DNA of 64,000 nt from Escherichia coli. Lineage in GTDB: Bacteria; Pseudomonadota; Gammaproteobacteria; Enterobacterales; Enterobacteriaceae. The stretch is from assembly GCF_030013595.1 (NCBI RefSeq), contig NZ_CP122768.1; one strand, written 5' to 3'. Made by a program: the position numbers and the translations under genes. This document shows, one piece after another, positions 3,796 through 44,898 of the stretch. Under the pieces are notes generated by a model. That model was not told the DNA's origin. It ran no database searches and was given only the letters and a program-made list of their open reading frames with translations. Each line of letters opens with the position of its first letter. The first letter of the stretch is position 1.

Positions 3796-3837
3796 TCCTA
3801 ACATCCTGAAATGTGCGGGTTGCCCCGCACCAATTTG

Positions 3838-4692
3838 TTAACCTGCAATAGCCATTCCTACCGTCATGTGCAGGCCATAAAAGAGCACACGCCCGATCAT
3901 CTCACCGCCAAGTATGAGGATTAGCCCCAGAACAAGTCCGGCAACGTGAGGTTCACGGCGACGAATGAGCGGACAAAGCCAGCATCCTAGACCTGCGCAT
4001 AACAATACCACACGCCAGACCTGTAAGGAGGCGTAATCTGGTACCAGTGCGCTGGCTTGTTGTACGGATGAGTGAATAGACGCCAGAGACAAACCTTGCA
4101 GCACAATCACCCCGGCACAAGCGATCAGCGCCAGAACGCTAATGATGGCAAAGGGTGTGGTATTAAATGTAATGCGGGCTGCCCGCAGAATTGCGGCAGC
4201 AAGTATTGGACCGCTCAACAATACTGTCAGGAAGAAAGCCAGCGTAGTGTAACCGTTATGCCAGGTTGGCACTGTGTCGATTTGATACACGCAGGTCATC
4301 ATCCAGACGAAAATGACGCCGAGCGCCATGCTGACAAGTAACCAGAGTTTCCCCAACGCTTGCGGCATTTTACCGATGATCGCCACCAGCCACCATAATC
4401 CGCCAACGGCAAAAAATATGGAACCGGCAGCAATCTCGTTACTCAGACCAGAAGCTCCGATTCGATTCAGCGAGTTAAACGCTCGCAGTGGCGATCCCAG
4501 GTGCATGACAGAGGCAATAAACCCGATGCCCATCAACAGCCAGAGGAAAAACATGCCACGGACAATACGCTGACGGTCTGCGTCATTATTGGCGGCGAAC
4601 CAGCCAATTCCGCTAACAATCAGCGCGCCTACTACGCATTGACCCAATACGGTAAAGATAACCAGTGGCCATTCATGCCATCCATTTCCCAT
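3838..4692 (-). CDS. ynfH: DMSO-reductase-type membrane anchor subunit
   Basis: 284 aa from MGNGWHEW (ORF track extends upstream to 4932); start overlaps ynfG stop (ATGA); multi-TM. Confidence 0.85.
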   Translation of the reverse strand: MGNGWHEWPLVIFTVLGQCVVGALIVSGIGWFAANNDADRQRIVRGMFFLWLLMGIGFIASVMHLGSPLRAFNSLNRIGASGLSNEIAAGSIFFAVGGLWWLVAIIGKMPQALGKLWLLVSMALGVIFVWMMTCVYQIDTVPTWHNGYTTLAFFLTVLLSGPILAAAILRAARITFNTTPFAIISVLALIACAGVIVLQGLSLASIHSSVQQASALVPDYASLQVWRVVLLCAGLGCWLCPLIRRREPHVAGLVLGLILILGGEMIGRVLFYGLHMTVGMAIAG

Positions 4693-4693
4693 T

Positions 4694-5290
4694 TTACACT
4701 TCCTCCGGATTAGCCAGATAACCAGTGGTATCGCCGGTCGGGCGGCTGTTGGCGTTAGGTTTGATAACGATATTGGGTTTTGTGAAATGCGCGCGCGGTA
4801 GTGGCGCGACGGCAGCCAGAGTGCCGTGCTTCTGGCGCAGCTCTTCAATTGGACCGAACTCAAGTGCACGCAGCGGGCAGGATTCGACACATATGGGTTG
4901 TTTCCCCTCGGCGACGCGCGAATAACAACCATCGCACTTCGTCATGTGTCCTTTTTCAGCATTGTACTGTGGCGCGCCGTACGGACAAGCCATGTGGCAG
5001 TAGCGGCAGCCGATACAAACATCTTCATCAACCACCACAAAGCCATCTTCACGCTTATGCATTGCGCCGCTGGGGCAGACTTTTGTACATGCGGGGTCAT
5101 CGCAATGGTTACAGGAGATGGAGAGATAATAAGCGAACACGTTCTGGTGCCAGACGCCGCCAGCATATTCATAAATACGGCGGAAACTGACTTCCGGGCC
5201 AAGATCTTTAAAATCTTTGCACGCCAGTTCGCAGGTTTTACAGCCAGTACAGCGGCTGGAATCGATAAAAAATCCATATTGTGTGGTCAT
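4694..5290 (-). CDS. ynfG: DMSO-reductase-type 4Fe-4S ferredoxin subunit
   Basis: 198 aa; four CxxCxxCxxxCP-type cysteine clusters; between ynfF and ynfH. Confidence 0.85.
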   Translation of the reverse strand: MTTQYGFFIDSSRCTGCKTCELACKDFKDLGPEVSFRRIYEYAGGVWHQNVFAYYLSISCNHCDDPACTKVCPSGAMHKREDGFVVVDEDVCIGCRYCHMACPYGAPQYNAEKGHMTKCDGCYSRVAEGKQPICVESCPLRALEFGPIEELRQKHGTLAAVAPLPRAHFTKPNIVIKPNANSRPTGDTTGYLANPEEV

Positions 5291-5300
5291 GGGCTACTCC

Positions 5301-15941: not shown

Positions 15942-16146
15942 ACCTTATGGGGCAGAAAAACCGCCGCATAAACCTATCGTCTGCTGACCGAAGTTTCGAC
16001 GCATTGAGCCAGACGGAAAAGTTTTCCTGCTGGTAAACCACCTTAATTTAAACACCTTTTGAGAATGACCGATGCGGGGAGACCCGTAGGCATAACTGTG
16101 TCTGCGATACCGATAGTTCTCACCTTCTCAATAGGAGTACTACCTT

Positions 16147-16638
16147 ATGTTATTCAACAACAACGACTGGAAACTATCAGTCACCGACATCAATCCCTAT
16201 GAAAATACTGTGAGTCTGGACGGTCAGTCCTATCCGCTGTCTCTGGCGATTAAGACCCTGATTCCGGGCTACCTGTCAGGCTTACCGTCCACCAGCCGCG
16301 AGGCGATGGAGTTACTGGAAGCTCTGGCTGAAGCTGGCGTGTCCATTGGCAACTTCTTCAGTAATGACCTGATGACCGCCTATGGTCGCCGCCAGCAGAA
16401 CAAGCGAGCCGAAGCTGAGCGTATTGCTAAAGAGCAGCGCATTCAGGCTGAGCGTATGCGTGAAGAGAACATGACTGATGCAGAGTGGCAGAAAGAGCTA
16501 CAGCGCCGTGAACAGGTCAAAGCTGAACGCCGGACCTATGGTGAGCACCTCCGCAGTGCTACCCATTCCGCTGGGCGCTCCCGTGCTTCTATGGTCGCTG
16601 ACATTGAGTCCACGGACAACTGGATGGACAGCCTCTAA
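16147..16638 (+). CDS. hypothetical charged coiled-coil protein (scaffold-like?)
   Basis: 163 aa; RBS AGGAG; C-terminal K/R/E-rich helical segment. Confidence 0.5.
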   Translation: MLFNNNDWKLSVTDINPYENTVSLDGQSYPLSLAIKTLIPGYLSGLPSTSREAMELLEALAEAGVSIGNFFSNDLMTAYGRRQQNKRAEAERIAKEQRIQAERMREENMTDAEWQKELQRREQVKAERRTYGEHLRSATHSAGRSRASMVADIESTDNWMDSL

Positions 16639-16704
16639 GACACAGACACACAAGTGGTCCTGACCTGATGTCGGGACCCACAGTATCCAAACTAATTTAG
16701 GAGA

Positions 16705-17700
16705 TTGATTATTATGACGATTAAAGACGCTTTCCAGTTCGGCATTGAGCCAGTACGTATCAGCGACACCGACAACATTCAGATTAACGAAGGTTTGCCA
16801 ACTAACGCAGACCCGCAGGTCTATGCCCTCCAGTTAGCTAAGACGGTTAAGGCTATGCTGAACGGTGTACTTAAAGACGCTCAAGAGAACATCCCGTTCC
16901 CTGTAGAAGTCCTGCCGACCCGCAATAGCCTGCCTACTCCAATCATTGCTCACACTCTGGCTGATCGCTCTGTGGTCGTTCCTGTCCGTGGTGGTAAGCG
17001 ACCTGAAGTCGTGACCGTTCCGTCTGGACAAGAAATCGTGGTCGAACCAATCGAGCAGGCTATTCTCATCTCTGAGCAGACCAAGCTCTGGGACGCCAAG
17101 TCATCCACCGGATTCACTCAGGGCACACTTCAGCAGGACGCTATGAACATCTGTGAGAATGTGGTCCGTACCATCAACGCTCGCATGGTCGACGTTCTGG
17201 AGTCCTCCAAACTGTTGAAGACCGTAGAGCTGCCAGTCCTGACTGGAAGCCTGACCACTAAGGCAGACGCTATCATGGACGCTCTGTTTGAGAACACCGA
17301 GTCCTCTTTCGGCTCTGAAGTGTCTGATTACGGCATCATCGCCCATGAGTCCCAACTGAAAGCGCTGTCCCGTCTGGCAGCTAAACAGGGCTTCTCTGGT
17401 GGAGACGCTATCGTGGATATGCTGGGTACCGACATCGCCTATTACAACGGTGAAGACAAGGGTGTATTCATGCTGGCTAAACGCTTCACGGCCCTGAGCT
17501 TCGGCTGCTTCCGTCACGACGGTGAGAATATTACGGTCGTCCTTTCACGTGATGGCGACTCTCAGTCCCACGACTTGGAAATCCTCGGTAAAGTGTTCGT
17601 TGTCGCTGAAGCTGCTACGACCATCAAGATGGGCACTGGCTCAGCTACTGCCGTCCTGCCTGTAGTCAAACGCCTGAAGTTCACCAAGACCGAAGCGTAA
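16705..17700 (+). CDS. hypothetical 331-aa protein (possible virion/structural protein; unverified)
   Basis: Long ORF with RBS AGGAG directly downstream of coiled-coil ORF; no motif recognised. Confidence 0.5.
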   Translation: MIIMTIKDAFQFGIEPVRISDTDNIQINEGLPTNADPQVYALQLAKTVKAMLNGVLKDAQENIPFPVEVLPTRNSLPTPIIAHTLADRSVVVPVRGGKRPEVVTVPSGQEIVVEPIEQAILISEQTKLWDAKSSTGFTQGTLQQDAMNICENVVRTINARMVDVLESSKLLKTVELPVLTGSLTTKADAIMDALFENTESSFGSEVSDYGIIAHESQLKALSRLAAKQGFSGGDAIVDMLGTDIAYYNGEDKGVFMLAKRFTALSFGCFRHDGENITVVLSRDGDSQSHDLEILGKVFVVAEAATTIKMGTGSATAVLPVVKRLKFTKTEA

Positions 17701-29359: not shown

Positions 29360-31831
29360 TTAAGAATCAGCCTGACTCGGGATCAGTTTTTGCCAGATAA
29401 CTGAAACGTATTTTGCTTGGTAACGGGCGTCATCAAGTGCATTATGGCGCTCACCTTCGAATGGAATAGCCGTTCTGGCATCGAAATCTATGGCTTTCCC
29501 CAGCTCAACGATTGTGCGTACATCGCGATCGTTGTAGTAACGCCACGGGCAGGGGATCCCCTGCCGTTCGTATGAACGGCGCAAAATCGTGTTGTCGAAG
29601 TTGGCTCCATTTCCCCAAACCTGAACAAAAAATTCACCGGAGTTTTCGTCGATAAATTCCCGCAATTGTAACAGTGCATCATCTAACGGGATTTCATCGG
29701 TCATAATGGCAGATTGTGCTTCGCGTGATTGCTTAAGCCACCATTTAATGGTGTCCCGATCAATGACTCCGCCAGCAGTTTCCAGATCGATAGTCTTACT
29801 AAATTCCGGTCCTATATCTCCGGTTTGCGGATCGAAAAATATTGCACCTATTGAGATGATCGGTGCATCAGGATTTTTTCCCATGGTTTCAAGGTCGATC
29901 ATTAGATGGTCACACGTCCTGCTGGTGGATGTGATTTTGTGATGACCGTTCACCTTAATTGAGTGATCTGCCGTCTCGCCAGTTTCATTATCGCTATTGT
30001 GATGCTGATTGCCGCCAGTGTTCTCCTTGTGTGGATGTTCAGCGCCTTCCATTTCCTCCGGATCATCTTCCTGAACTTCAACCTGATACTCTTCATCGAA
30101 TGTTTCTTGGTATGTTGCGTCGCCCATCACCGCGCCACAATCAGGGCAGTTGCCGCCGCCGGTCTGACCGCAGGCGGTGCAGACTTTTTCCACTTCCTGT
30201 TGCGCCACTGGTTCAGGCTGTTTCGTTTCTGGCTCGTTTTGTAACGCATTTGGGCTGTTTTGTTCCGCTTTTTGGTAGTTCCGTTCCGATTCATGCTGGT
30301 TCTGGTTCACAGAATCGCGGGTCTGGATCCCCTTAACCCATTTCGGATCATTCGGGTCACTAATCCCTTCAACAAATTCACCATGTGATGCAGCAAGCAA
30401 CTTATCGGCGTCAGGCTGGCTGATATTGGCTGCCTGCATAATTTTGTTTACTTCGTCAGCGGTAACTTTTATCGGCTCTGGTTGTTCTGAATCTTCAGCG
30501 GTATCTACATTTTGCGGTAAGCCCGTGTATGTGCCATTTTTTCGGGCAAAATATTCTTCTTTTGTGATTTCAGTGGCGCCAGCAGCCAGTGCCTTATCTA
30601 GACCAGAAAGTTTGTTTGCGCGACCGTATTTTTCTCCGTCCTTATCTGCGAAGAGGAAATAGAACGGCCCCTCACGCTCTACAGATGGTTCAGCTTCCGG
30701 CGCGGTTTCATTTTTTGGGATATCAGATACCTCAGTTTCCACTGCATCAGTTTGTGTTTCTGATGACTGGAGAACATCAACAGTGCCCAGGTCTGTTTCT
30801 TCATTCTCAAACACGCCCTTTGTCGTCAGGTATTCGCAGATATATTTGTTCAGTGCTACGGGATCTTTGTGAATGTCGATCGGACGCTCACGGACAAGGC
30901 CAAAAATAGTTTGGCGGTCGTAGCGAAGGGCATCAGGCTGTTTGCGCATTGATGCCGAGATACGCTTCCAGTCTTCGCGGTCGTTGTCGATAACTTCTTT
31001 TTTTGCCCAGCGATGGATGCTGCCGTCAATGTTTCCGGCATCCACATCACCAGGCCAGAGAGCGTAGGCCAGTTCGTCATCCAGTGTTTTCCATGTCTGC
31101 TTGTATTCGCGATGAATGGCAGCAATGACCGGGCTGATTTTTCCTGTTGAATTTTCAGTGTACTGTTGATTGGCTCTGGCGCGGGCGAGATCAACAACAG
31201 ACGTGTATTTTCCGGTTTCCTTGCGTTCACCTTCGCGACGTTTTTTCCAGATGCGCATCTCTGCCTGAATTTCGGGCCATTTAGCACCAGGAATACATTT
31301 ATGCTTAACCCACCCAATGGCGTGCAACTTAAGCTCCGGATACATGGCGTTAACTTCTGGCATTTTCATCAACGCTTCAACGATATGTCCGTCGAATGTT
31401 GCCATGTCTTCCTGCAACAATTCCTGTGCGCTAATAACCATATCAACGGTGATGTTTTCACATGTGTCGAACTTAACCATGACAGCGTTCTGTACTTCAG
31501 GGGCCAGCTTGTCAAAAGTGACGTTCATCGGATCGGATTCAGTCTCAACCGGGACAAAAGAAGCAGACTCCTCATCCCAGCGGTTTTCCTGCATATATTC
31601 AGCATCCCATGAATCGAGGGCAGGGCGGGGTATGCCAGGTTTATCCTCGCAGACAATAAATTTATAAGCGCAGTCCTGAGCAGCCGGATAATGTTCCAGG
31701 AACTGCCAGTGAAATTTTGCTCGAGCACGGCGTTCGTCGCCAGCTTCAATGGCTGTGGCTACAGCCACAGCGCCTTCTTCCCTTGTTGCCAGTTCGTCAG
31801 GAATAGCGGCGCAAATAAAGACTTTACTCAT
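29360..31831 (-). CDS. prophage exonuclease-family protein (C-terminal DEDD-type 3'-5' exonuclease fold)
   Basis: 823 aa; C-terminus has DLET...GxNxxFD...H..LDDA exonuclease motifs; acidic central region. Confidence 0.65.
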   Translation of the reverse strand: MSKVFICAAIPDELATREEGAVAVATAIEAGDERRARAKFHWQFLEHYPAAQDCAYKFIVCEDKPGIPRPALDSWDAEYMQENRWDEESASFVPVETESDPMNVTFDKLAPEVQNAVMVKFDTCENITVDMVISAQELLQEDMATFDGHIVEALMKMPEVNAMYPELKLHAIGWVKHKCIPGAKWPEIQAEMRIWKKRREGERKETGKYTSVVDLARARANQQYTENSTGKISPVIAAIHREYKQTWKTLDDELAYALWPGDVDAGNIDGSIHRWAKKEVIDNDREDWKRISASMRKQPDALRYDRQTIFGLVRERPIDIHKDPVALNKYICEYLTTKGVFENEETDLGTVDVLQSSETQTDAVETEVSDIPKNETAPEAEPSVEREGPFYFLFADKDGEKYGRANKLSGLDKALAAGATEITKEEYFARKNGTYTGLPQNVDTAEDSEQPEPIKVTADEVNKIMQAANISQPDADKLLAASHGEFVEGISDPNDPKWVKGIQTRDSVNQNQHESERNYQKAEQNSPNALQNEPETKQPEPVAQQEVEKVCTACGQTGGGNCPDCGAVMGDATYQETFDEEYQVEVQEDDPEEMEGAEHPHKENTGGNQHHNSDNETGETADHSIKVNGHHKITSTSRTCDHLMIDLETMGKNPDAPIISIGAIFFDPQTGDIGPEFSKTIDLETAGGVIDRDTIKWWLKQSREAQSAIMTDEIPLDDALLQLREFIDENSGEFFVQVWGNGANFDNTILRRSYERQGIPCPWRYYNDRDVRTIVELGKAIDFDARTAIPFEGERHNALDDARYQAKYVSVIWQKLIPSQADS

Positions 31832-34386: not shown

Positions 34387-34891
34387 ACAGGCTCGTGAGG
34401 CTCTGGATGCCTGGATATGTCGACCAGGAATGACACAGGAGCAGGCGACGATATTAATCACTGAAGCATTCTGGGCTTTGAAAGAGCGCCCGAACATCGA
34501 TGTTCAGCGTGTCACAGATGAAGGTGGCGCGGTTGATCAGCGAGCGCTTGGCGTTAATCGAGTGAAGATATTCGAACGCTGGAAGGCTATCGACACTAGG
34601 GATAAGCGTGAAAAGTTCACGGCGCTAGTGCCTGCAATTATGGAGGCTATCCGGATTAATGATTTCAGGTTGTATCGTGAAATTAGTGACGGAAAAAGCA
34701 TCACGTACATGATCGCCGGGTTAAACAAAGAATATGGCGATGTGGTGGAGTCCGGACTGCTTTTTGCTGATCCTGCCGTAGTGGATCGTGAAACTGACGA
34801 ACTTATAGAAAAAGCAATTGCTTTCAAACTTGCGTATCGACTGCAATACCAACAAAAAGCTGGATGGAATTATGAGCCTTCTTTTTGCTGA
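34370..34891 (+). CDS. hypothetical early-region protein (CII/YdaT-position)
   Basis: 173-aa ORF overlapping dicC-like stop. Confidence 0.45.
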   Translation: MKITPEQAREALDAWICRPGMTQEQATILITEAFWALKERPNIDVQRVTDEGGAVDQRALGVNRVKIFERWKAIDTRDKREKFTALVPAIMEAIRINDFRLYREISDGKSITYMIAGLNKEYGDVVESGLLFADPAVVDRETDELIEKAIAFKLAYRLQYQQKAGWNYEPSFC

Positions 34892-35837
34892 ACGCCCACT
34901 GGTTATAAACACACAGCTTGCGATGAAGATTGGCTTAAATGAAGCCATTGTGTTGCAGCAGTTGCATTACTGGTTGAGAGATACCAATTCCGGCATGGAA
35001 TGTGATGGTGTTCGCTGGATTTACAACACAACGGAACAATGGCTGGAACAGTTCCCATTCTGGCCAGAGTCAACGTTAAAGCGCGCGTTTGCAAGTCTGA
35101 AAACGCTGGGGCTTTTGCGTTGTGAAAAGCTCAATAAATCAAAGCGCGATATGACCAATTTCTACACGATCAACTATGGGAGCGAGCTTTTAGATGGTGG
35201 CAAATTGAACGAATCCATCGGTTCAAAATGCGCCGCTCCATCAGGTCAAAATGACACGATGGAAGAGGTCAAAATGAAACGCTCCATTGGTTCAAAACGA
35301 CCCAATGTCATCGGGTCAAAATGGCCTGATGATCTTACAGAGAATACAACAGAGATTACTACAGAGAATAAAAACACTTTTCGTCCGGAAGCTTCGCAAC
35401 CGGACCCGCAGACCGCTGAACAGGATTTTTTAACCCGGAACCCCGACGCGGTTGTGTTTAGTGCGAAAAAACGCCAGTGGGGTAGCAGGGAGGATTTGGC
35501 GTGTGCGCAGTGGATTTGGGGGCGGATCGTGAACCTTTACGAACAGGCTGCCAGCGACGATGGAGAGATCATGCGACCAAAAGAGCCTAACTGGACAGCC
35601 TGGGCCAATGACGTGCGCACAATGCGGATGCTGGATGGCAGAAGCCACAGACAAATTTGCGAAATGTTTGGTCGGGTACAGCGAGATCCATTCTGGGTAA
35701 AAAACATCATGAGCCCGTCAAAACTCCGCGAAAAATGGGACGAACTGGTCATCCGCTTGGGACGTTCACCTGTACAGCGTTGTGTGAATCATATTTCTGA
35801 ACCGGATACAGAAATTCCGCCTGGTTTCAGGGGATAA
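34872..35837 (+). CDS. replication initiation protein (lambda O-like) with internal iterons
   Basis: 321 aa; repeated SIGSK/VIGSK peptide motifs encoded by direct DNA repeats around 35210-35330. Confidence 0.65.
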   Translation: MSLLFAERPLVINTQLAMKIGLNEAIVLQQLHYWLRDTNSGMECDGVRWIYNTTEQWLEQFPFWPESTLKRAFASLKTLGLLRCEKLNKSKRDMTNFYTINYGSELLDGGKLNESIGSKCAAPSGQNDTMEEVKMKRSIGSKRPNVIGSKWPDDLTENTTEITTENKNTFRPEASQPDPQTAEQDFLTRNPDAVVFSAKKRQWGSREDLACAQWIWGRIVNLYEQAASDDGEIMRPKEPNWTAWANDVRTMRMLDGRSHRQICEMFGRVQRDPFWVKNIMSPSKLREKWDELVIRLGRSPVQRCVNHISEPDTEIPPGFRG

Positions 35838-35877
35838 GTGTTGATTTCAGGTCATGAGGTAATTTTAAGGAGGACTT

Positions 35878-36273
35878 GTGGCAAAAGTTTTTACACAGGA
35901 AGAGCGGGAAAAAATTAAAGAGCAGGTGGTCGAACTTGTGCGCCAGAGCGGTCGCGAGACATTACGACAGTTGGAAGCTAAAACAGGTGCGACAAGATAT
36001 CTGATGAGCATTCTTGCCAGAGAGCTGGTTGCCAGTGGTTATGTATACAACTCCGGCTACGGGTTATTCCCGTCTGAACAGGCACGAAAGGACTGGCAAA
36101 ATGCCCGCAAAAAACTCTCTAGGGCGAAGGTGAAGAAACCCGCTGTGGTTGATCCGGACCTTATCTGGTCACTACCTGATGGAGAAATACGTCGCTACGA
36201 CAGTCGTCTAAACATAATCTGTCGCGAGTGCCGGAAGAGCGAAGTTATGCAGCGCATATTGTCGTTTTATTAG
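35878..36273 (+). CDS. hypothetical protein
   Basis: 131-aa ORF with RBS AAGGAGG. Confidence 0.5.
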   Translation: MAKVFTQEEREKIKEQVVELVRQSGRETLRQLEAKTGATRYLMSILARELVASGYVYNSGYGLFPSEQARKDWQNARKKLSRAKVKKPAVVDPDLIWSLPDGEIRRYDSRLNIICRECRKSEVMQRILSFY

Positions 36274-36615
36274 GGAAATGTTCGGTATCTATTTAAGTGA
36301 CGAGATTAAAGTGCATTAGTTAAGATGTAAATTGACATTTTCATGGCATAGGGTAGAGGTAGCGTGGTTGTCTGCTTTGTGCCATGAACTGATGTCGCTT
36401 GTGTGCGTGGCAATTAGTGTATAACGGATATCATCAGACTCCAGCAGTAGCATTGCTTGAGCATACTAACATATGAAATCTTTAGTTAACGTAAGATAAA
36501 TTAGATTTAGTTTTTTTGAGTATGAGCTCATAAATAATCAAAAAAACTTGATACGCCATATGACTTTGATTTATTTTGGGAAAATATAAAGGTAATGTAA
36601 TGTAAAGAGGAAAAT

Positions 36616-38103
36616 GTGGACATTAGAGACTGGCTACCAGAATTTCAAGTTTCAGCAGAAACAGATCGGGACTTACAGACCTATTTTTTTAAGCTACCGG
36701 CGATAAAGGATATTATTGAAAGTAGGGCTTGGTTGGTTCTTGGAAGAAAAGGTACTGGTAAAACAGCCATTTATGAACACCTTAGAAGAGGAAAACCAGC
36801 CAATCTCAACGGGTTTTACTCAGTATGTCTAAATTTTAGTGACTATCCATGGCCAGCCCATCAACTTTACAAGGATGCAATGGCTGGAGAACTTTCCGCT
36901 TATCAAAAAAGTTGGATGTATCTTTTTTATATTAAGGCATTATCTAAACTTATTGAAATAAAAAATGATGCTGGAGAGACTTTAAACAAAGATCTAACGT
37001 GGGCACATAATTATATCAAAACTATCTTTGGTAGTCCCGACCCAACTCTTAGGGAGGTTTTGTTTTCAAAAATAACCAGATTAAAAACCATAAAAGGGCC
37101 CAGTGCTGGTCTTAATGAAGTATCATTGGACGCAGGTGAAATTTCGTTAGAGGAAGTTGCTGAGAATGCTCAGCTAAAGCAAAAGCTAAGAGCTAATGCT
37201 TTCACATTGCTTACGTATTTTGAAAAAATTTTTAAAGATAACATTGGTAATGAAAAAATAATTATCGCCCTTGACCAATTAGACGAAAACTGGCTAGAGG
37301 GGCAAATTGAAGAATATAGTAAGGTTTTAATAAATCTGCTAAATGTCTGTAGAAACATAGCATCTGATGAACGCCTCAATGATAAATTAAAAGTCATTCC
37401 CTTCCTACGAACGGATATTTATCATTCTTTGAAATTCAATGATAAAAACAAATTATTGCAAGATAGTGCTATCATAATCTCATGGAATGAAAATAATCTA
37501 AACGATATGTATTATGAGAGGATAAAGAAATACAAACCTAATGATCTCATATTAGATGACGAAAAGGACAGATCTGGGAAAGTATTTGAGGTTTCATTCG
37601 TTAGGCAGGGGACTCCTCCATTTAAATATATATGTCGCCGTTCTTTCTTTAGGCCTAGGGATATTATTGTCTACTTCAACAAAATTAGGGCATGTCATAA
37701 AAATAATGTCTCAGGTCTTTACACTTCCAATGAGCTTTATGAAGCTGACCGTGAAGCATCTATAAGTGTGTACAATGAGGTGATTGATGAATGGTCCAAC
37801 CAATTCCCTGAAATTGAGAACTTACTAACTGTTCTTCAAACTATCCAAGTAGAAACATTCGATTTTAATGATTTCTCCGAGAAGTGCCGTAATGAATTTG
37901 CAGGTATTTCTGATGGGGTGATACGTCAATATATCAACTTCCTGTTTGATAACTCACTTATCGGACAAAAAAAACAAGGTAGATGGGAATACGTAAGTAG
38001 TTTGCCTAACTTAAAAATTAATCTACAAAATGAGTTTAGGACACATCATGCTTTAAAATACAGGTTGCATTTAATAGAAAGCAGACCGAGCCAAAATATT
38101 TAG
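36616..38103 (+). CDS. uncharacterised P-loop NTPase (candidate defence/abortive-infection moron)
   Basis: 495 aa from GTG with RBS AAGAGG; Walker A GRKGTGKT, Walker B-like IIIALDQLDE; gene and upstream region markedly AT-rich. Confidence 0.6.
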   Translation: MDIRDWLPEFQVSAETDRDLQTYFFKLPAIKDIIESRAWLVLGRKGTGKTAIYEHLRRGKPANLNGFYSVCLNFSDYPWPAHQLYKDAMAGELSAYQKSWMYLFYIKALSKLIEIKNDAGETLNKDLTWAHNYIKTIFGSPDPTLREVLFSKITRLKTIKGPSAGLNEVSLDAGEISLEEVAENAQLKQKLRANAFTLLTYFEKIFKDNIGNEKIIIALDQLDENWLEGQIEEYSKVLINLLNVCRNIASDERLNDKLKVIPFLRTDIYHSLKFNDKNKLLQDSAIIISWNENNLNDMYYERIKKYKPNDLILDDEKDRSGKVFEVSFVRQGTPPFKYICRRSFFRPRDIIVYFNKIRACHKNNVSGLYTSNELYEADREASISVYNEVIDEWSNQFPEIENLLTVLQTIQVETFDFNDFSEKCRNEFAGISDGVIRQYINFLFDNSLIGQKKQGRWEYVSSLPNLKINLQNEFRTHHALKYRLHLIESRPSQNI

Positions 38104-38451
38104 CTTACATCCATCTCCATTAAGAAATCTTGCTATTGTTCTTATGGATCGTCTTTCTGACTGATTTCATATTGGCGAGGTAAAGGTAGTTAAGTAGAAT
38201 GGCTGCGGGTGCTTGAGGCTATCTGCCTCGGGCATGAACACCAAAGGCAGATAGAGAAAAGCCCCAGTTAACATTACGCGTCCTGCAAGACGCTTAACAT
38301 TAATCTGAGGCCAATTTCATGCTAGACACATGTAGGTTAGCCTCTTACGTGCCGAAAGGCAAGGAGAAGCAGGCTAGTGTTAACACCAAGCTGTAATGTC
38401 CCCTTTGAACCATTCTAAAATGTCCCCAGACAATTCTCTGGGGGATTTTTC

Positions 38452-39792
38452 ATGATCAAAGAGACTGTTACGATGAGTCATAAGGAACTCCACCGACTTC
38501 AGATTATTCAGGAGTCAATTAATCGACATATTACTCAGGAACAAGCTGCGGCACGCATTGGCATTTCTATTCGGCAGGTTAAACGTCTGGTGCAACGGTA
38601 TAGAAATGAAGGGCCTTCTGGTCTGGTTTCCCACCGACGTGGAAAGCGTCCTAATAATTCCTTTTCTACTGAATTCAGAGCAACAGTAATTTCACTCCTC
38701 AAAGGCCGTTACGCTGATTTTGGACCTACGTTTGCGTGCGAAAAATTGCGCGAGATACACGGTTTATCTTTATCCGTTGAAACTCTCAGAAAGTGGATGA
38801 TAGAAGAGGGGTTATGGCGTGAACGCCGTCGTAAAATTGCCCGTATATATCAACGCCGCATGCGACGACCATCTTACGGTGAACTGATCCAGATTGATGG
38901 CTCACCTCATGACTGGTTTGAAAATCGAGGCCCCAGATGTACACTGATCGTTTTCATTGATGATGCCACCAGTGCGTTGATGGCGTTGCGTTTTGTGCCT
39001 GCTGAAACAACCCGGGCTTACATGGAAACCCTCCGGGGTTACCTTAATGATCATGGCGTACCGCTCGCTCTCTACTCTGATAGACACAGTATATTCAGGG
39101 TAAATAACCCAGAGCGGGAAGGTGAGCTGACCCAGTTCACTCGTGCGATAAAGACACTGGGCATCGAGCCAATCCATGCCAACAGCCCGCAGGCAAAAGG
39201 GCGGGTAGAGCGCGCCAATCAGACACTACAGGACAGGCTGGTCAAAGAAATGCGGCTTCAGAATATCAGTGATATTGAAACAGCAAATGCATGGTTGCCG
39301 ACCTTTATTGAAGCCTATAACAACCGGTTCGCTACGTCGCCTCGTACTACTGATAATGCTCATCTTGATGAGCACCATTCTGAAGAGGAACTGGGTTATA
39401 TCTTCAGCCTACAGGCGAAGCGCGTTCTGTCTAAAAATCTCACTTTCCAGTACAAAAGCAGTGCGTTTCAGGTACGCAGTGAGGGCCGGGGATATCGACT
39501 TAGGCATTCGGTTGTTACTGTATGCGAGAACTTTGACGGTGAAATTAACGTTCTGTATGACGGGAAAGCGCTGGGCTGGGAAAAGTATGTTGATGGCCCG
39601 GAGCCTATACCACTGGATGATGAAAAGAGTGTCCATGAACGAGTGGATAATGCCCGTATTGATTTACGCTCAAAATACTATGTTAAACCTAAAGCTGACC
39701 ATCCCTGGCTTACGCGCCGAACGCAAAGTCATCAGCAAGTTAAGCCCCCGAAGTTACCTAAAAAGAAGCCTGATCCCGATAAAAAAGATTGA
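38452..39792 (+). CDS. DDE transposase, ISNCY/IS1202-group-like
   Basis: 446 aa; N-terminal HTH and integrase-core (DDE) region; basic C-terminus; element ends not resolved. Confidence 0.65.
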   Translation: MIKETVTMSHKELHRLQIIQESINRHITQEQAAARIGISIRQVKRLVQRYRNEGPSGLVSHRRGKRPNNSFSTEFRATVISLLKGRYADFGPTFACEKLREIHGLSLSVETLRKWMIEEGLWRERRRKIARIYQRRMRRPSYGELIQIDGSPHDWFENRGPRCTLIVFIDDATSALMALRFVPAETTRAYMETLRGYLNDHGVPLALYSDRHSIFRVNNPEREGELTQFTRAIKTLGIEPIHANSPQAKGRVERANQTLQDRLVKEMRLQNISDIETANAWLPTFIEAYNNRFATSPRTTDNAHLDEHHSEEELGYIFSLQAKRVLSKNLTFQYKSSAFQVRSEGRGYRLRHSVVTVCENFDGEINVLYDGKALGWEKYVDGPEPIPLDDEKSVHERVDNARIDLRSKYYVKPKADHPWLTRRTQSHQQVKPPKLPKKKPDPDKKD

Positions 39793-40185
39793 AACCAAGA
39801 TCGATTCGGTTGAGTGCATATCCATTCATAGGGTAGATTCTTAAGTCGCGTTTCTGGTGTTCATTTTCGGGTGGTTTGTTACTTGTTTTACCGGGGATAT
39901 GCCAGAAACGCGCTGAGTCAGTCTGGGCGGTGCGCGTAATGAGGCGTTATGGTAAATAGCCTATGCTAATGTCCGCTAAGAGCAAGAAGCGGAAGTTGGC
40001 AGTTTTGTGGACTGTCCCCACAAAAGTGACTACAGAAATAGTTGCAATTCATAATTGATCATGGGTTGTCAGTTAAACTCGTGGCGATTTAAATAGACTA
40101 ATTGGGAGTGCGTCCATTACTTATATCTTGTAATGTTAACTATCAGAAATGATACAAAGATAATATGTCTTTAAAGAAAAGGCTG

Positions 40186-40214
40186 ATGGCGAAAAGTGGC
40201 CCGATGAGGGCCAC
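40186..40214 (-). terminator. Rho-independent terminator downstream of flxA
   Basis: Minus-strand hairpin GTGGCCCUCAUCGGGCCAC followed by UUUUC. Confidence 0.5.
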
Positions 40215-40228
40215 AATACGGCTGTCAC

Positions 40229-40561
40229 TTAGACGTAAATATCAATGGTGCCAGCGGTATTTGTATCGTCTTTTTTCTCTTCTTTTTTATCAGGCTGAAC
40301 TGTCGCGTCTTCATTCTTTTTCTCTGCCTGCTGCCTTAACAACTGCTCCAGTTGAGCCCAGAGGCTTTCAATTTGCTTCTGTACCAATGCAGCCATTTCT
40401 TTTTTCTGCTGTGTCGTCATCCCCTCTTCCGATGAGATTTTCCCAAGCTTTTCAGTCAGCACCTGAATTTGTCTTGTGATTTTGGCTATTTCTGATGTTC
40501 CTTCCGGGGCGGAGTTGTTTGAAATAACGGTTGAGGTATTTCCCTGAATTGTGACAGACAT
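40229..40561 (-). CDS. flxA: FlxA (FliA-regulated prophage protein)
   Basis: 110 aa MSVTIQGNTSTVISNNSAPEG... matching recalled FlxA. Confidence 0.8.
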   Translation of the reverse strand: MSVTIQGNTSTVISNNSAPEGTSEIAKITRQIQVLTEKLGKISSEEGMTTQQKKEMAALVQKQIESLWAQLEQLLRQQAEKKNEDATVQPDKKEEKKDDTNTAGTIDIYV

Positions 40562-40584
40562 AGATTTCTCCTTTTAAAAAAGCA

Positions 40585-40611
40585 CTATCGGCATGCACAA
40601 AAAAATCTTTA
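40585..40611 (-). promoter_or_regulatory. sigma-28 (FliA) class promoter for flxA
   Basis: Minus strand TAAAGATT-N11-GCCGATAG versus consensus TAAAGTTT-N11-GCCGATAA, 24 nt upstream of flxA start. Confidence 0.7.
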
Positions 40612-41093
40612 ATCGTATTTCTTGTGTCATTAATTGTTTGATGTTCAGATTGTTTTCCTCGCGGGCTGGCGCGCCTCAGAAAGTAAAGCTTGTTGACAGG
40701 GGTAAACGTTCGGCAATAATTTTCTGCCGCATGCGGGTGTTGCATAAAACGTGTTACGTTCCTTTATCGACAGGTCAGGTCACCGCTCACCCGCCGACGA
40801 GAAAGCAACACTGACATGCTAAAGCAAAAAATAGATGAATAAGTTGAGTTGTGCATATGTAGCCTGACCGTCACAAAGTATATGGTGTCTGTACCAGTAA
40901 GATGATGGCCGGACTCTTTAAAAACGAGCTGACCTGCACAATACAGGATGGACTTAGCAATGGCTGCTCCTGGCAGAAAGCGGACAGTGATCACCGTTCT
41001 TACGACTACTTTCTGACTTCCTTCGTGACTTGCCCTAAGCATGTTGTAGTGCGATACTTGTAATGACATTTGTAATTACAAGAGGTGTAAGAC

Positions 41094-41333
41094 ATGGGTA
41101 GCATTAACCTGCGTATTGACGATGAACTTAAAGCGCGTTCTTACGCCGCGCTTGAAAAAATGGGTGTAACTCCTTCTGAAGCGCTTCGTCTCATGCTCGA
41201 GTATATCGCTGACAATGAACGCTTGCCGTTCAAACAGACACTCCTGAGTGATGAAGATGCTGAACTTGTGGAGATAGTGAAAGAACGGCTTCGTAATCCT
41301 AAGCCAGTACGTGTGACGCTGGATGAACTCTGA
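41094..41333 (+). CDS. relB: RelB antitoxin
   Basis: 79 aa MGSINLRIDDELKARSYAALEKMGVTPSEALR... Confidence 0.9.
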   Translation: MGSINLRIDDELKARSYAALEKMGVTPSEALRLMLEYIADNERLPFKQTLLSDEDAELVEIVKERLRNPKPVRVTLDEL

Positions 41334-41620
41334 TGGCGTATTTTCTGGATTTTGACGAGCGGGCACTAAAGGAATGGCGAAAGCTGGGCTCGACGGTACG
41401 TGAACAGTTGAAAAAGAAGCTGGTTGAAGTAATTGAGTCACCCCGGATTGAAGCAAACAAGCTCCGTGGTATGCCTGATTGTTACAAGATTAAGCTCCGG
41501 TCTTCAGGCTATCGCCTTGTATACCAGGTTATAGACGAGAAAGTTGTCGTTTTCGTGATTTCTGTTGGGAAAAGAGAACGCTCGGAAGTATATAGCGAGG
41601 CGGTCAAACGCATTCTCTGA
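41333..41620 (+). CDS. relE: RelE mRNA-interferase toxin
   Basis: 95 aa MAYFLDFDERALKEWRKLG...; start overlaps relB stop. Confidence 0.9.
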   Translation: MAYFLDFDERALKEWRKLGSTVREQLKKKLVEVIESPRIEANKLRGMPDCYKIKLRSSGYRLVYQVIDEKVVVFVISVGKRERSEVYSEAVKRIL

Positions 41621-41691
41621 ACCAAAGCATGACATCTCTGTTTCGCACCGAAGGTGACACTTCTGCTTTGCGTTGACAGGAGAAGCAGGCT

Positions 41692-41847
41692 ATGAAGCAG
41701 CAAAAGGCGATGTTAATCGCCCTGATCGTCATCTGTTTAACCGTCATAGTGACGGCACTGGTAACGAGGAAAGACCTCTGCGAGGTACGAATCCGAACCG
41801 GCCAGACGGAGGTCGCTGTCTTCACAGCTTACGAACCTGAGGAGTAA
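41692..41847 (+). CDS. hokD: Hok-family membrane toxin HokD (RelF)
   Basis: 51 aa MKQQKAMLIALIVICLTVIVTALVTRKDLCEVRIRTGQTEVAVFTAYEPEE; below ORF-track cutoff. Confidence 0.85.
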   Translation: MKQQKAMLIALIVICLTVIVTALVTRKDLCEVRIRTGQTEVAVFTAYEPEE

Positions 41848-42063
41848 GAGACCCGGCGAGGGAGAAATCCCTCGCCACCTCTGATGTGTCAGGCATCCTC
41901 AACGCACCCGCACTTAACCCGCTTCGGCGGGTTTTTGTTTTTATTTTCAACGCGTTTGAAGTTCTGGACGGTGCCGGAATAGAATCAAAAATACTTAAGT
42001 AGCGCGCAGGGATAAGAGGGATGGTCCCTTAAAGGGGAGAGCTAATTATCCGGAAGGATTCTG

Positions 42064-42315
42064 ATGATGAACATCGAAGAACTGCGTAAAATTTTTTGTG
42101 AAGATGGCCTCTATGCTGTGTGCGTTGAAAATGGAAATCTTGTTAGTCATTACCGCATTATGTGTTTGCGAAAGAATGGGGCTGCGTTAATTAATTTTGT
42201 GGATGGTCGAGTGACAGACAGATTTATCTTGCGCGAAGGTGAGTTTGTCACTTCATTACAGGCACTGAAAGAGATCGGAATAAAAGCAGGCTTTTCAGCT
42301 TTTGCAGAAGAATAA
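42064..42315 (+). CDS. rem: Rem protein
   Basis: 83 aa MMNIEELRKIFCEDGLYAVCVENG... matching recalled Rem. Confidence 0.8.
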   Translation: MMNIEELRKIFCEDGLYAVCVENGNLVSHYRIMCLRKNGAALINFVDGRVTDRFILREGEFVTSLQALKEIGIKAGFSAFAEE

Positions 42316-42622
42316 ACTCATCTACAATCTTGCGCGGGGCTGAACTCCCGCTGAGTAACACCGTGCCACCGGAGAAAACCGATGGCACGCAACGTAAAAT
42401 ATTACAATTCTGATAATTCGCCCGTTCTTGCCTGCACGCACGAGCGGTATTCTCACGCATTCAAGTCTGAATGGTTCCAACACCCTCCATGCACTGAAGA
42501 GCAGGCTGAATGGATAATTCAGTGTTACCGCAGGCGCGGATACGAGGTTAAGAAAGCCCTTAGTCTCGACTACCGTCACTGGATAATCTCAGTCAGATTG
42601 CCTTACTCCGAACGCCCACCAC

Positions 42623-43711
42623 GTGCGTCCCGCACTTTCCAGCAACGGATCTGGAGGTAACGTGCGGGTATTACTTAGACCTGTTCTGGTGCCTGAGCTT
42701 GGGCTGGTGGTCCTTAAGCCGGGCCGTGAATCCATACAGATATTTCATAATCCTCGAGTGCTGGTGGAACCGGAACCAAAAAGCATGCGTAATCTGCCAT
42801 CCGGAGTCGTTCCTGCCGTTGGCCAGCCGCTGGCGGAAGACAAAACATTGCTGCCGTTTTTTAGTAACGAACGGGTGATTCGTGCTGCTGGCGGCGTTGG
42901 CTCATTGTCTGACTGGCTATTACGTCATGTTACATCCTGCCAGTGGCCTAATGGCGATTACCATCACACTGAAACAGTCATTCACCGTTATGGTACCGGC
43001 GCAATGGTGTTGTGTTGGCACTGCGACAACCAACTGCGTGACCAGACATCGGAATCACTGGAGCTGCTTGCTCAACAAAATCTGACAGCATGGGTGATTG
43101 ACGTCATCCGTCACGCAATAAGCGGTACGCAGGAGCGGGAATTATCTTTGGCTGAATTATCCTGGTGGGCGGTCTGCAATCAGGTGGTGGATGCACTACC
43201 TGAGGCTGTATCGCGTCGTTCGCTGGGATTACCAGCGGAAAAAATCTGCTCGGTGTACCGCGAAAGCGACATCGTACCGGGAGAGCAGACCGCCACCAGC
43301 ATATTGAAACAACGCACAAAAAATCTTGCACCGTTGCCTTACGCCCACCAGCAACAAAAACTACCACAGGAAAAGACGGTGGTAAGCATCACCGTTGATC
43401 CAGAGTCTCCGGAATCTTTCATGAAGCTGCCTAAACGTCGCCGCTGGGTTAAGGAGAAATACACACGTTGGGTTAAGACACAGCCGTGTGCTTGCTGCGG
43501 TATGCCAGCCGACGATCCGCATCATCTGATTGGTCACGGGCAGGGCGGAATGGGAACAAAAGCACATGATCTCTTTGTGTTGCCTTTGTGCAGAAAGCAT
43601 CACAACGAGCTGCATACGGATACAGTGGCATTTGAAGAGAAGTATGGCTCCCAACTGGAGCTGATATTTCGTTTTATCGATCGCGCGCTGGCAATTGGCG
43701 TACTGGCGTAA
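42623..43711 (+). CDS. ydfU: YdfU-like DUF968 protein (HNH-like C-terminus)
   Basis: 362-aa ORF; C-terminal CACCG...HHLIGHG...CRKHHNELH cysteine/histidine motif; true start uncertain (overlapping ORF 42382..42660). Confidence 0.65.
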   Translation: MRPALSSNGSGGNVRVLLRPVLVPELGLVVLKPGRESIQIFHNPRVLVEPEPKSMRNLPSGVVPAVGQPLAEDKTLLPFFSNERVIRAAGGVGSLSDWLLRHVTSCQWPNGDYHHTETVIHRYGTGAMVLCWHCDNQLRDQTSESLELLAQQNLTAWVIDVIRHAISGTQERELSLAELSWWAVCNQVVDALPEAVSRRSLGLPAEKICSVYRESDIVPGEQTATSILKQRTKNLAPLPYAHQQQKLPQEKTVVSITVDPESPESFMKLPKRRRWVKEKYTRWVKTQPCACCGMPADDPHHLIGHGQGGMGTKAHDLFVLPLCRKHHNELHTDTVAFEEKYGSQLELIFRFIDRALAIGVLA

Positions 43712-43724
43712 GTGGAGAACGAGC

Positions 43725-44477
43725 ATGAACCTTGAAGCCTTACCAAAATATTACTCCCCAAAATCTCCAAAATTGAGCGATGACGCTCCAGCGACAGGCA
43801 CCGGTTGTTTAACAATTACGGATGTAATGGCAGCGCAGGGGATGGTGCAGTCGAAAGCACCACTTGGGTTGGCCTTATTTCTGGCAAAAGTTGGTGTTCA
43901 GGACCCTCAGTTTGCGATTGAAGGCCTGCTAAATTACGCGATGGCACTGGATAACCCGACATTGAACAAATTGAGTGAAGAAATCCGGTTACAGATTATT
44001 CCTTACCTCGTGAGTTTTGCCTTTGCTGATTACTCCAGGTCTGCGGCAAGTAAGGCTCGCTGTGAGCATTGTTCAGGTACGGGATTTTATAATGTATTGC
44101 GCGAAGTGGTGAAACACTACAGACGCGGGGAATCTGTAATCAAGGAAGAATGGGTGAAGGAACTATGTCAGCATTGCCATGGTAAGGGCGAAGCCAGCAC
44201 AGCGTGCAGAGGGTGTAAGGGTAAAGGGATTGTTCTGGATGAAAAAAGAACCCGGTTTCATGGCGTACCGGTATATAAGATTTGTGGGCGTTGTAATGGA
44301 AACCGGTTTAGTCGTTTACCGACCACGCTGGCACGACGTCATGTCCAGAAGCTGGTACCAGACCTGACCGATTATCAGTGGTATAAGGGGTATGCGGACG
44401 TCATTGGTAAACTGGTAACAAAGTGCTGGCAGGAAGAAGCATACGCGGAAGCGCAATTGAGGAAGGTGACGAGATAA
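43725..44477 (+). CDS. quuQ: late-gene antiterminator Q (QuuQ-like)
   Basis: 250 aa from MNLEALPKYY; cysteine-rich zinc-binding region CEHCSGTG...CQHCHGKG...CRGCKGKG. Confidence 0.8.
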   Translation: MNLEALPKYYSPKSPKLSDDAPATGTGCLTITDVMAAQGMVQSKAPLGLALFLAKVGVQDPQFAIEGLLNYAMALDNPTLNKLSEEIRLQIIPYLVSFAFADYSRSAASKARCEHCSGTGFYNVLREVVKHYRRGESVIKEEWVKELCQHCHGKGEASTACRGCKGKGIVLDEKRTRFHGVPVYKICGRCNGNRFSRLPTTLARRHVQKLVPDLTDYQWYKGYADVIGKLVTKCWQEEAYAEAQLRKVTR

Positions 44478-44583
44478 ATGATTTTTGCTGAAGATGGCGA
44501 CATGATGTTTGCATTTTTCAAAAAATATGGATAAAATTTTTTCAACGATGGGCTTTGTATACCCGACGTTAAGAAAAAGTAGA

Positions 44584-44610
44584 AAACCCGCTGATGAGCG
44601 GGTTTTGTGC
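44584..44610 (+). terminator. Rho-independent terminator in late-promoter region downstream of Q
   Basis: CCCGCTGATGAGCGGG hairpin followed by TTTTGTGC. Confidence 0.6.
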
Positions 44611-44898
44611 TTTAAATGGGGCAATGGTAATGTTGAATCTCATCCCGGGACTCATGTCTGTTAACTTATTATTTAGCTGGTGACTTGGTTATTTGCCTGA
44701 TGTTTAAAATGTTTTCTTCCAGTACAATGTCCCTAAACACAATGAGTCTGCTTATTATATTATTAGCAGAGCTATTACGGCCAAAGTACAGCATAAGCTT
44801 TTAAAGCCAATCAACCAGTCATCAAGACAGACGGGGTTATTCATAAAAACTCTCCATGTGTGATCCGATGGGGCCTGAAATTAAAGCTTTAATATAGC

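Follow-up and report, generated by a model that had tools for sequence, protein, structure and literature searches.

An IS1202-family unit transposon carrying relBE and its probable insertion into the hokD translation-initiation region of a Qin-like prophage

In a 64,000-nucleotide stretch of the Escherichia coli contig NZ_CP122768.1 (assembly GCF_030013595.1), referred to here as the window, the open reading frame (ORF) at 38452-39792 is very probably the transposase gene, tnp, of an IS1202-family unit transposon (ISEsa1 subgroup) that is 3,301 bp long and is inserted in the hok orientation into the translation-initiation region of hokD within a Qin-like lambdoid prophage. The mobile unit, 38378-41678, is ordered as left terminal inverted repeat (IRL), tnp, a conserved tail, the cargo genes flxA and ydfV, the toxin-antitoxin genes relB and relE, and right terminal inverted repeat (IRR). 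Because flxA, ydfV, relB and relE sit between its ends it is a unit transposon and not a strict insertion sequence (IS), which would hold transposition genes only, and other copies carry 1-10 kb of other cargo. An initial annotation had placed an ISNCY-like transposase, its ends left unresolved, in the interval 38104-40185; an IS of about 2 kb inside that interval has to be given up in favor of the longer unit.

Ends of the element and its empty site

The junctions were placed by aligning the window with the uninterrupted hokD locus of E. coli GN05505 and with plasmid copies of the element. The left junction reads ...GGCAAGGAGAAGCAGGCTAg / TGTTAACACCAAGCTGTAATGTCCCC... and the right ...GGTGACACTTCTGCTTTGCGTTGACA / GGAGAAGCAGGCTATGAAG..., with IRL beginning TGTTAAC at 38378 and IRR terminating GTTGACA at 41678. 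Reverse-complemented, IRL agrees with IRR at 19 of 26 positions, more than in any other inverted match of the 64-kb window (the runner-up scores 17), and the terminal CTGCTTTGCGTTGACA of IRR is kept even in Citrobacter elements of 81% identity. At each end the outer repeat is followed by an inner one, TAATGTCCCC then AAATGTCCCC on the left and, read inward, AAGTGTCACC then AGATGTCATG on the right, and these inner copies are probably second transposase-binding sites. The IS1202 family is described as having just such ends, tipped with TGT/ACA, imperfectly repeated over ~26 bp and provided with a second site further in (PMC10132070), and the element combines transposase homology to that family with TGT...ACA ends, imperfect repeats of ~24-26 bp and an internal repeat near each end, all as read from the sequence. 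The initial annotation had stated that terminal inverted repeats could not be defined in 38104-40185; rightly so, since this interval stops 1.5 kb short of the right end. Within 37900-40400 no terminal repeat pairs with the left end, and a candidate TGTAGTCAC... near 40034, together with a direct TGTCCCC repeat at 40013, failed against the plasmid alignments.

A 15-bp target site duplication (TSD), GGAGAAGCAGGCTA(T), flanks the unit and spans hokD from the Shine-Dalgarno sequence to the AT of its ATG. The empty site is preserved in GN05505 (L002): positions 3001-3249 correspond to window 38128-38376 and positions 3235-6249 to window 41678-44692, the two matches overlapping by exactly 15 bp. 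Most E. coli genomes match only 38128-38376 of the query, with the match stopping at the first base of a hokD gene, and where hokD is uninterrupted, the match to the right-hand probe begins no earlier than 41678. The DNA to the left of the element gives a full-length match to Rfam family RF01794 (sok / hok leader) at 38207-38373 (111.2 bits, gathering score 59) and is 98.8% identical to the DNA directly upstream of the hokD coding sequence (CDS) in the element-free GN05505. In an intact locus this leader would run directly into a hok frame; in the window the hokD CDS lies 3.3 kb away, and because leader and hokD are contiguous in L002 the hok/sok locus of the window has been split. What was mok' now ends at a TAA within IRL, hokD retains its Shine-Dalgarno sequence because the duplication regenerates it, and hokD now follows relE at a distance of 71 bp, which is the relBEF arrangement.

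The initial annotation had also reported an 8-bp-stem hairpin at 38229-38260 in the DNA flanking the transposase gene. The hairpin is real, ATCTGCCT/AGGCAGAT, with its coordinates given 8 nt too high (the arms lie at 38221-38228 / 38245-38252), and it is the first stem-loop of the RF01794 match; because it is part of the hok/sok leader, it is target DNA and not an IS end.

Insertion at one position and in one orientation, next to an unusually long flanking repeat, could also be produced by site-specific recombination of the integrase type, with the 15-bp repeat as attachment core, but we consider this hardly credible. The repeat is derived from the target and varies by site, including sites with no recognizable likeness to hok, and the element has TGT/ACA inverted ends and a DDE transposase. 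Among the ORFs between 38378 and 41678 there is no tyrosine or serine recombinase, nor is there a TnsA, a TnsC/AAA+ partner or a target selector.

The transposase

The initial annotation's assignment of the ORF, on its helix-turn-helix (HTH) and integrase-core layout, to the IS1202/ISNCY-type transposases was borne out. Overlapping Pfam matches (HTH_28/29/32/23) extend across residues 10-116, rve_3 falls at residues 238-291, and NCBIfam NF033594 (transpos_ISNCY_2, 'ISNCY family transposase') matches with 463.8 bits against a cutoff of 250, over profile positions 1-365 of 368. RefSeq names genes identical to tnp 'IS1202-like element ISEsa1 family transposase'. The residues D149, D210 and E253 are invariant among relatives down to 36% identity. 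An AlphaFold model with a mean predicted local distance difference test (pLDDT) score of 72.5, built on a shallow 6-sequence alignment and therefore read at the level of domains only, places helices at 10-58 and 73-118 (two HTH domains), an RNaseH core at 144-293, a beta-barrel at 320-379 and a disordered tail. In this model and in Foldseek comparisons the order is that of TnsB-like proteins, with two HTH domains, an RNaseH DDE domain, followed by a beta-barrel and, last, a C-terminal domain, and the top folds in the PDB are IstA (1.5e-14), TnsB of Tn7 and of type V-K CRISPR-associated transposons (CASTs) (2e-13 to 4e-12), and MuA. A sequence search of the PDB returned only a marginal match to retroviral integrase, and the single PADLOC match to TnsB (15.8 bits) covers the HTH region only.

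In a genome that is 100% identical, RefSeq flags tnp as a pseudogene 'missing C-terminus', and the last 49 codons of the ORF (39643-39792) are entered there as a separate gene, ydfW. We rejected the pseudogene status because the ORF comprises the same 446 codons as copies annotated as intact: the protein is identical to WP_004196353.1, which is annotated intact on many plasmids, at 445 of 446 residues, the sole change being V307E. We infer that the flag stems from the separate annotation of the tnp tail as ydfW. A common variant of the element (3,273-3,274 bp; L009, L047, L051, L060 and L062, in the numbering of loci used here) has a 27-bp in-frame deletion at the position of window 38508-38534, bounded by two ATTA(T/C)TCAGGA repeats. 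The deletion removes residues 20-28 in the first HTH domain and probably inactivates the transposase; the window copy is full.

Copies elsewhere and the extent of the mobile unit

Scans of species genomes and metagenomes yielded 73 instances of IRL. For 18 of these the two ends, IRL and IRR, and a duplication of 15 or 16 bp were verified; these elements are 2,575-12,843 bp long. A TSD of 15-16 bp in 18 loci stands against none reported for this sub-group (PMC10132070). The 16-bp duplications include those of L037, L038 and L065, and non-hok insertions with their own duplications include L011 (CTAAGGCGGTTATATG), L012 (CATGACCGCGCAACCG), L022 and L070. The left junction is carried by 780 of 5,426 complete E. 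coli genomes and the relE-IRR-hokD junction by 1,161 of the same 5,426.

Between the two ends, the cargo varies widely. A Phytobacter plasmid holds a 12,843-bp version flanked on both sides by GGAGAAGTCAGCTAT, in which the tnp module and the relBE-IRR module are kept and ncrYCBA, a methyltransferase gene, chrBA and others replace flxA and ydfV. The cargo slot of L007 holds ncrYCBA, chrBA and other genes over ~10 kb, L065 has genes for a cytochrome b561-like protein and a CDF transporter, and L038 has genes for a P-loop kinase-like protein and an HTH protein. The right module, comprising the relBE promoter, relBE, the inner repeat and IRR, is constant across at least 5 different cargos. More distant are two Citrobacter elements (transposase 81% identical) at non-hok sites with perfect 16-bp duplications, in which metabolic genes make up ~8 kb and the place of relBE is taken by a GNAT toxin paired with a small antitoxin. 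L070, a derivative of 2,180 bp, lacks tnp while retaining its two ends and a duplication of 15 bp, and this implies mobilization in trans.

If the mobile unit were only the ~1.6-kb ISEsa1 (~38378-39997), then flxA, ydfV and relBE would be ordinary neighbors in the prophage. In Harmer & Hall 2023, ISEsa1, as listed in ISfinder, measures 1,609 bp, has 15/22 terminal repeats and shows neither a detectable TSD nor a conserved target (PMC10132070), the cargo variants all diverge at one discrete point near 39997, and an IRR-like GTTTGGTTGACG stands at the ncr-type junction. We nonetheless regard this delimitation as very improbable. Near 39997 in the window there is neither an inverted match to IRL nor a duplication, and a recurrence of the flank at IS-like distance (1.45-1.85 kb downstream) was seen in 0 of the 48 IRL instances followed on the right by 1.9 kb or more of sequence, as against 20 in which it recurs farther away. 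The empty site contradicts it as well, for what is inserted there is the whole of 38378-41678, and an E. roggenkampii plasmid has the identical 3,301-bp unit, with flxA, ydfV and relBE, in a different hok allele and inside its own duplication, GGAGAAGAAGGCCAT on both sides. No TSD was found for the 1,609-bp ISEsa1 because the true duplication lies beyond IS distance, and the 1,609-bp entry is most likely the left module only.

A related alternative is that the IS proper is ~1.6 kb long and that the larger units arise when it uses a surrogate right end downstream of relE, in the one-ended or 'pseudo-compound' manner of ISEcp1. The discrete border of the left module would fit this, as would the short direct repeat AAGCGGAC at both cargo borders and the different toxin-antitoxin pair (GNAT toxin and small antitoxin) at the right end of the Citrobacter relatives. 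We think it unlikely, if less so than the short unit just discussed, given that one right module accompanies at least 5 different cargos, that the right end has the two-site architecture of the family and is no chance look-alike, that its terminal CTGCTTTGCGTTGACA persists in those same Citrobacter elements, and that the tnp-less derivative retains both ends. A transposon bounded by IRL and IRR thus remains the reading we favor.

Tandem arrays of the form IRR-15 bp-IRL, in which two elements share a single 15-bp copy of the target, occur in L056 and L067, and it follows that a regenerated target site can be re-used. In a Leclercia chromosome (L017, 9995-10001) IRR abuts nucleotide 340 of another tnp, and in L045 the duplication halves come from two different sites, pointing to recombination between copies.

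Apparent preference for hok

The window's IRL subtype provides 22 distinct left junctions, of which 16 are of hok type, all at one position and in one orientation, that of hok; we counted as hok-type a junction with a hok leader, or one in which the hok Shine-Dalgarno/start had been displaced by a tandem copy or by ISKpn28. At seven further loci, full-length Rfam sok matches of 81-107 bits end no more than 5 nt from IRL and represent diverged alleles. Across these loci the element is 99-100% identical while the hok flanks diverge by 15-20%, each duplication matches its own allele on both sides, and both duplication lengths, 15 and 16 bp, occur at hokD. A near-constant element among diverged flanks, allele-matched duplications and two TSD lengths argue for repeated insertion over inheritance. 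Among the junctions surveyed, none of the distant IRL subtype (TGTTAAGACTATG) lies in hok.

At some loci the duplication consists of GGAG plus 12 bp of an ISKpn28 end, so that ISKpn28 had broken the hok locus before the element entered it, in the same register. This leads us to infer a targeting determinant at or upstream of GGAG. ISKpn28 itself, a member of the IS481 family with ends TGTATGGGTCC... / ...GTGTGAACTTACACA, directly follows the same hok GGAG. It is found at this position also in L035, L039, L042, L052, L059, L072, L033, L045 and L078, and in a K. pneumoniae plasmid (L089, NZ_CP026175.1) it lies at ~16005-17101 and ~29942-31037, on both sides of a transposon with ncr, chr and relBE. 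A probe of GGAG plus 334 bp of the ISKpn28 end matched 2,216 plasmid records across 80% or more of its length, and the hok ribosome-binding site seems to attract at least two IS families.

Outside hok, L049 (IRL at 56) and L083/L086 (IRL at 11408) carry diverged versions of one sequence, ...ACGGCTGGCAATACG..., with IRL at the same position, which suggests a second recurrent target. When the non-hok duplications were compared by eye for a shared upstream hairpin or motif, small stems were seen beside L011, L012 and L008 only and not beside the others.

It is possible, though we are inclined to doubt it, that the homing to hok does not come from the transposase itself and instead reflects selection, through the persistence of insertions that neutralize a toxin locus, homologous exchange between hok loci, or sampling bias. 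In favor of such an explanation, 6 of the 22 junctions of the same subtype lie outside hok and the distant subtype is never in hok; recombinant copies exist, as in L045 with its two different duplication halves; and with the unrelated ISKpn28 at the same GGAG, the site may simply tolerate insertions. Against it, the same nucleotide and orientation are used in hok alleles that differ by 15-20% while the element is 99-100% identical, the duplications match the local allele on both sides, which an exchange of flanks would not yield, 15- and 16-bp duplications both occur at the one hokD site, and the tandem arrays represent re-use of a regenerated site.

Proposed origin of the K-12 relBEF locus

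The relBEF operon of E. coli K-12 was reportedly described by Gotfredsen & Gerdes in 1998, and Pedersen & Gerdes in 1999 are said to have found hokD inactivated 'by a major genetic rearrangement'. K-12-type DNA (L003) is 98.9% identical to the window from 39608 on, through relB, relE, IRR, the duplication and hokD, and the products RelB (WP_000534858.1) and RelE (WP_000323025.1) are annotated at matching positions in L003 and in the genome that is 100% identical. The pair in the element is therefore an adjacent type II toxin-antitoxin pair identical to the characterized relB/relE of K-12. The Qin prophage of K-12 lacks 34650-39607, a deletion of 4.96 kb whose joint lies at a GGAGGCTAT/GGAGCCTAT microhomology (window 34641-34649 / 39600-39608; L003 2990-3010) and which leaves the final 185 nt of the transposase gene joined to ydfX, a truncated ydaT-like gene. 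The deletion thus explains ydfX as a truncated ydaT-like gene, ydfW as the tail of tnp, and the missing control region of hokD. The locus is the same in both, but the window retains the complete element and the orphan hok/sok leader, both of which are lost in K-12, and the comparison shows the K-12 'rearrangement' as a putative transposon insertion followed by the 4.96-kb deletion.

A model for insertion and the points that weigh against it

If the element works as its parts suggest, then a DDE transposase with the order HTH-HTH-RNaseH-beta-barrel would bind two sites per end, cleave at the TGT/ACA tips and join the cleaved tips to target cuts staggered by 15-16 bp. The element would prefer the hok Shine-Dalgarno region by reading a determinant at or just upstream of GGAG, and relBE would be its addiction module. 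Insertion would sever hokD from its promoter, mok and Sok control, which would be left as an orphan 3.3 kb upstream, and would place hokD behind relBE in a relB-relE-hokD (relBEF) operon. In K-12, the later 4.96-kb deletion would have removed the left end, leaving ydfW, the last 49 tnp codons, as a relic.

For a more general proposal the case seems to us evenly balanced. According to it, a lineage of the IS1202 family with a single, TnsB-like transposase would home in one orientation to hok ribosome-binding sites via a determinant in the leader, for example a GCC-N4-GGC stem upstream of GGAG. It would thereby uncouple a type I toxin from its antisense control while installing its own type II pair together with exchangeable cargo, including metal resistance. 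The relBE(F) locus of K-12 would then be a decayed copy, and the ISEsa1 entry would represent the left arm only.

Several points weigh against the interpretation offered here. The support consists of comparative sequence throughout, and transposition was not observed. The terminal repeats are imperfect (19/26), and the two TSD copies in the window disagree at their last base, G on the left and T on the right. Many Qin copies descend from one ancestral insertion, and the independent hok events are accordingly far fewer than the loci: there are ~6 with both duplication copies verified, plus ~10 further distinct left junctions. The preference for hok could partly reflect selection or the sampling of enterobacterial plasmids and prophages. 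Finally, all cargo variants break at ~39997, where the ncr-type junction (GTTTGGTTGACG) resembles the true IRR tip, and a shorter IS of ~1.6 kb (1,609 bp in ISfinder) may once have been the mobile unit.

Relation to known elements

The copies share their transposase lineage with ISEsa1, including the 439 aa counted from Met8, which is the size listed, and a left module of ~1.6 kb. They depart from it in that the unit bearing the TSD is 2.2-12.8 kb long, IRR comes after a toxin-antitoxin pair, a TSD of 15-16 bp is present and hok is preferred. Once the true right end is used, ISEsa1, listed without a duplication or a target, gains both.

Elements of the ISAjo2/ISAba32 type, which target dif/pdif, have TGT...ACA ends with ~26-bp imperfect repeats, inner repeats, a single TnsB-like transposase and oriented insertion at a fixed distance, all as here. 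Theirs, however, is a 3-5-bp TSD beside the XerC arm of dif, without passenger genes; in the window the flank is the hok leader/Shine-Dalgarno sequence in place of an XerC arm 3-5 bp away, and the TSD is 15-16 bp. The long-TSD members of the IS1202/ISTde1 type (16-17 or 27-28 bp) have an unusually long target duplication in common with the element (PMC10132070, Table 7), but in the published tree they fall in another transposase sub-group, and neither cargo nor a preferred target is reported for them (PMC10132070).

TnsB of Tn7 and CASTs, IstA of IS21 and MuA of Mu are the best structural matches and share TGT/ACA tips and more than one binding site at each end. The systems concerned depend on an AAA+ partner (TnsC, IstB or MuB), with target selectors in the case of Tn7, and make 5-bp duplications, whereas the element encodes none of these partners: the TnsA, TnsC and target selector that accompany TnsB in Tn7-like elements are absent from 38378-41678. 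A single-protein, oriented element with a short, defined target would be a simple system for studying target choice by TnsB-like proteins without an AAA+ partner.

Tn3-family transposons with built-in toxin-antitoxin modules have reportedly been described by Lima-Mendez et al. in 2020 (mBio). They resemble the element in having a constant type II pair, presumably stabilizing, in a cargo-carrying unit transposon. They differ from it in their transposase superfamily, their ends, a 5-bp TSD and a resolution system, and in that their pair adjoins the transposition genes and is not at the opposite end.

It follows from the proposed origin that the model toxin-antitoxin system relBE would belong to a transposon as its constant end module, that the linkage of relBE to hokD (relF) would be the footprint of an insertion, and that ydfW would be a transposase fragment and not a gene. 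The element would also move nickel and chromate resistance (ncr, chr), a CDF transporter and metabolic genes among plasmids and prophages of Klebsiella, Enterobacter, Phytobacter and E. coli. In the literature we found no account of a duplication, target or cargo for ISEsa1 nor of a transposon origin of relBE-hokD, in a search that had subscription journals, ISfinder and TnCentral outside it, and an earlier description is possible. The family is known, and what appears to be new is the anatomy (a cargo transposon with a toxin-antitoxin end module and a 15-16-bp TSD) and the preference for hok.

Modules and internal structures of the element

The features of the element and its surroundings are collected in Table 1.

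Table 1. Coordinates in the window of the transposon, its modules and the split hok target.
Feature	Position	Strand	Remarks
Sll1717-family P-loop ATPase	36616-38103		495 aa; single-gene moron between DUF977 gene and hok leader; NCBIfam 250 bits
Orphaned hok/sok leader (hok promoter region, Sok target, mok' start)	38128-38377	+	Left half of split target
Left TSD copy GGAGAAGCAGGCTAg	38363-38377	+	Last base G; T in otherwise identical copies (L009, L044, others)
IRL, outer terminal inverted repeat TGTTAACACCAAGCTGTAATGTCCCC	38378-38403	+	TGT tip; same in all close copies whatever the left flank
Inner repeat of IRL core ACCATTCTAAAATGTCCCC	38409-38427	+	79% identical to 38385-38403; 5 bp inside IRL
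Hairpin + T-run	38423-38444	+	Terminator-like site; 3' arm covers tnp ribosome-binding site
tnp, ISEsa1-type IS1202-family DDE transposase	38452-39792	+	446 aa; 439 aa counted from Met8
Conserved non-coding tail of left module	39793-39997	+	205 bp; 98.5-100% identical across all cargo variants until ~39997
Variable cargo slot	39998-40959	.	flxA (40229-40561, minus) and most of ydfV ORF (40764-41069, minus)
Conserved right module	40960-41652	+	relBE promoter region, relB 41094-41333, relE 41333-41620, inner repeat
Right inner repeat	~41627-41646	+	ATGTCA core; 6 bp inside IRR
IRR GGTGACACTTCTGCTTTGCGTTGACA	41653-41678	+	ACA tip; kept at right junction of every complete copy
Right TSD copy GGAGAAGCAGGCTAT	41679-41693	+	Includes AT of hokD ATG
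hokD (relF) CDS	41692-41847	+	Right half of split target, downstream of relBE

The terminator-like hairpin ahead of tnp may shield the gene against read-through activation from the hok promoter. Behind tnp, the initial annotation had reported an 11-bp inverted repeat at 39846-39911, which is real and perfect (CGCGTTTCTGG/CCAGAAACGCG); its coordinates were off by one (39847-39857 / 39902-39912), and it lies inside the tail of the element and not in flanking DNA. It grows into a longer stem with no T-run after it, is identical in all close copies, and is mostly conserved, with little covariation, in relatives of 70-90% identity. The 208-nt region behind tnp folds better than its shuffles (z = -3.3), and the repeat could be a regulatory RNA structure or a protein-binding site.

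The borders of the cargo slot, ~39990-39997 and ~40960-40975, each bear a copy of AAGCGGAC as a direct repeat (left, GAGAAGCGGAC...; right, CACAAAGCGGACAGTG...), and the cargo variants of L004, L007, L038 and L061/L065 break at these same two borders. The ydfV ORF lies partly in the cargo and partly in the right module, with only its ~30 first codons conserved and the remainder varying with the cargo (L038, L065), and because most of the ORF changes with the cargo, ydfV may not be a real gene. Between flxA and ydfV, on the + strand, there is a near-consensus sigma-70 promoter-like site at 40693-40720 (TTGACA-16-AATAAT, 11/12), which points toward relB and lies within the variable cargo.

The prophage and the neighboring ATPase

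The interval 38104-40185 is 100% identical to NZ_CM149870.1, in which the RefSeq order is dicB, dicC, a ydaT-like gene, a DUF977 gene, the P-loop ATPase gene, the ISEsa1 transposase gene, ydfW, flxA, ydfV, relB and relE, continuing with hokD, rem, ydfU and antiterminator Q.

The initial annotation had proposed that the insertion may have truncated a multi-gene system beside an NTPase gene, and a comparison with an element-free prophage, here that of GN05505, had been set beforehand as the check. It refutes the proposal, for the locus that was split is hok/sok and the ends of the IS leave the NTPase untouched. With a match to profile positions 5-454 of 454 this NTPase, an ATPase of the Sll1717 family, is full length, and it stops 274 bp before the left end of the element at 38378, outside the target duplication. 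At the uninterrupted target in GN05505 its moron slot holds an unrelated DUF4209 gene on the opposite strand. The ATPase was rejected as a truncated defense system, being full length and giving in PADLOC only a partial match of 20.6 bits (PDC-M28C). It was likewise rejected as an AAA+ target-selection partner of the element comparable to IstB, TnsC or MuB: it lies outside the duplication, it is absent from every other copy, and DUF4209 takes its place at the empty site.

Just downstream of hokD, 41856-41937 gives a sub-threshold isrK-like match in Rfam (25.6 bits, gathering score 50) ending in a good terminator hairpin, and this region is probably the 3' end of the hok transcript.

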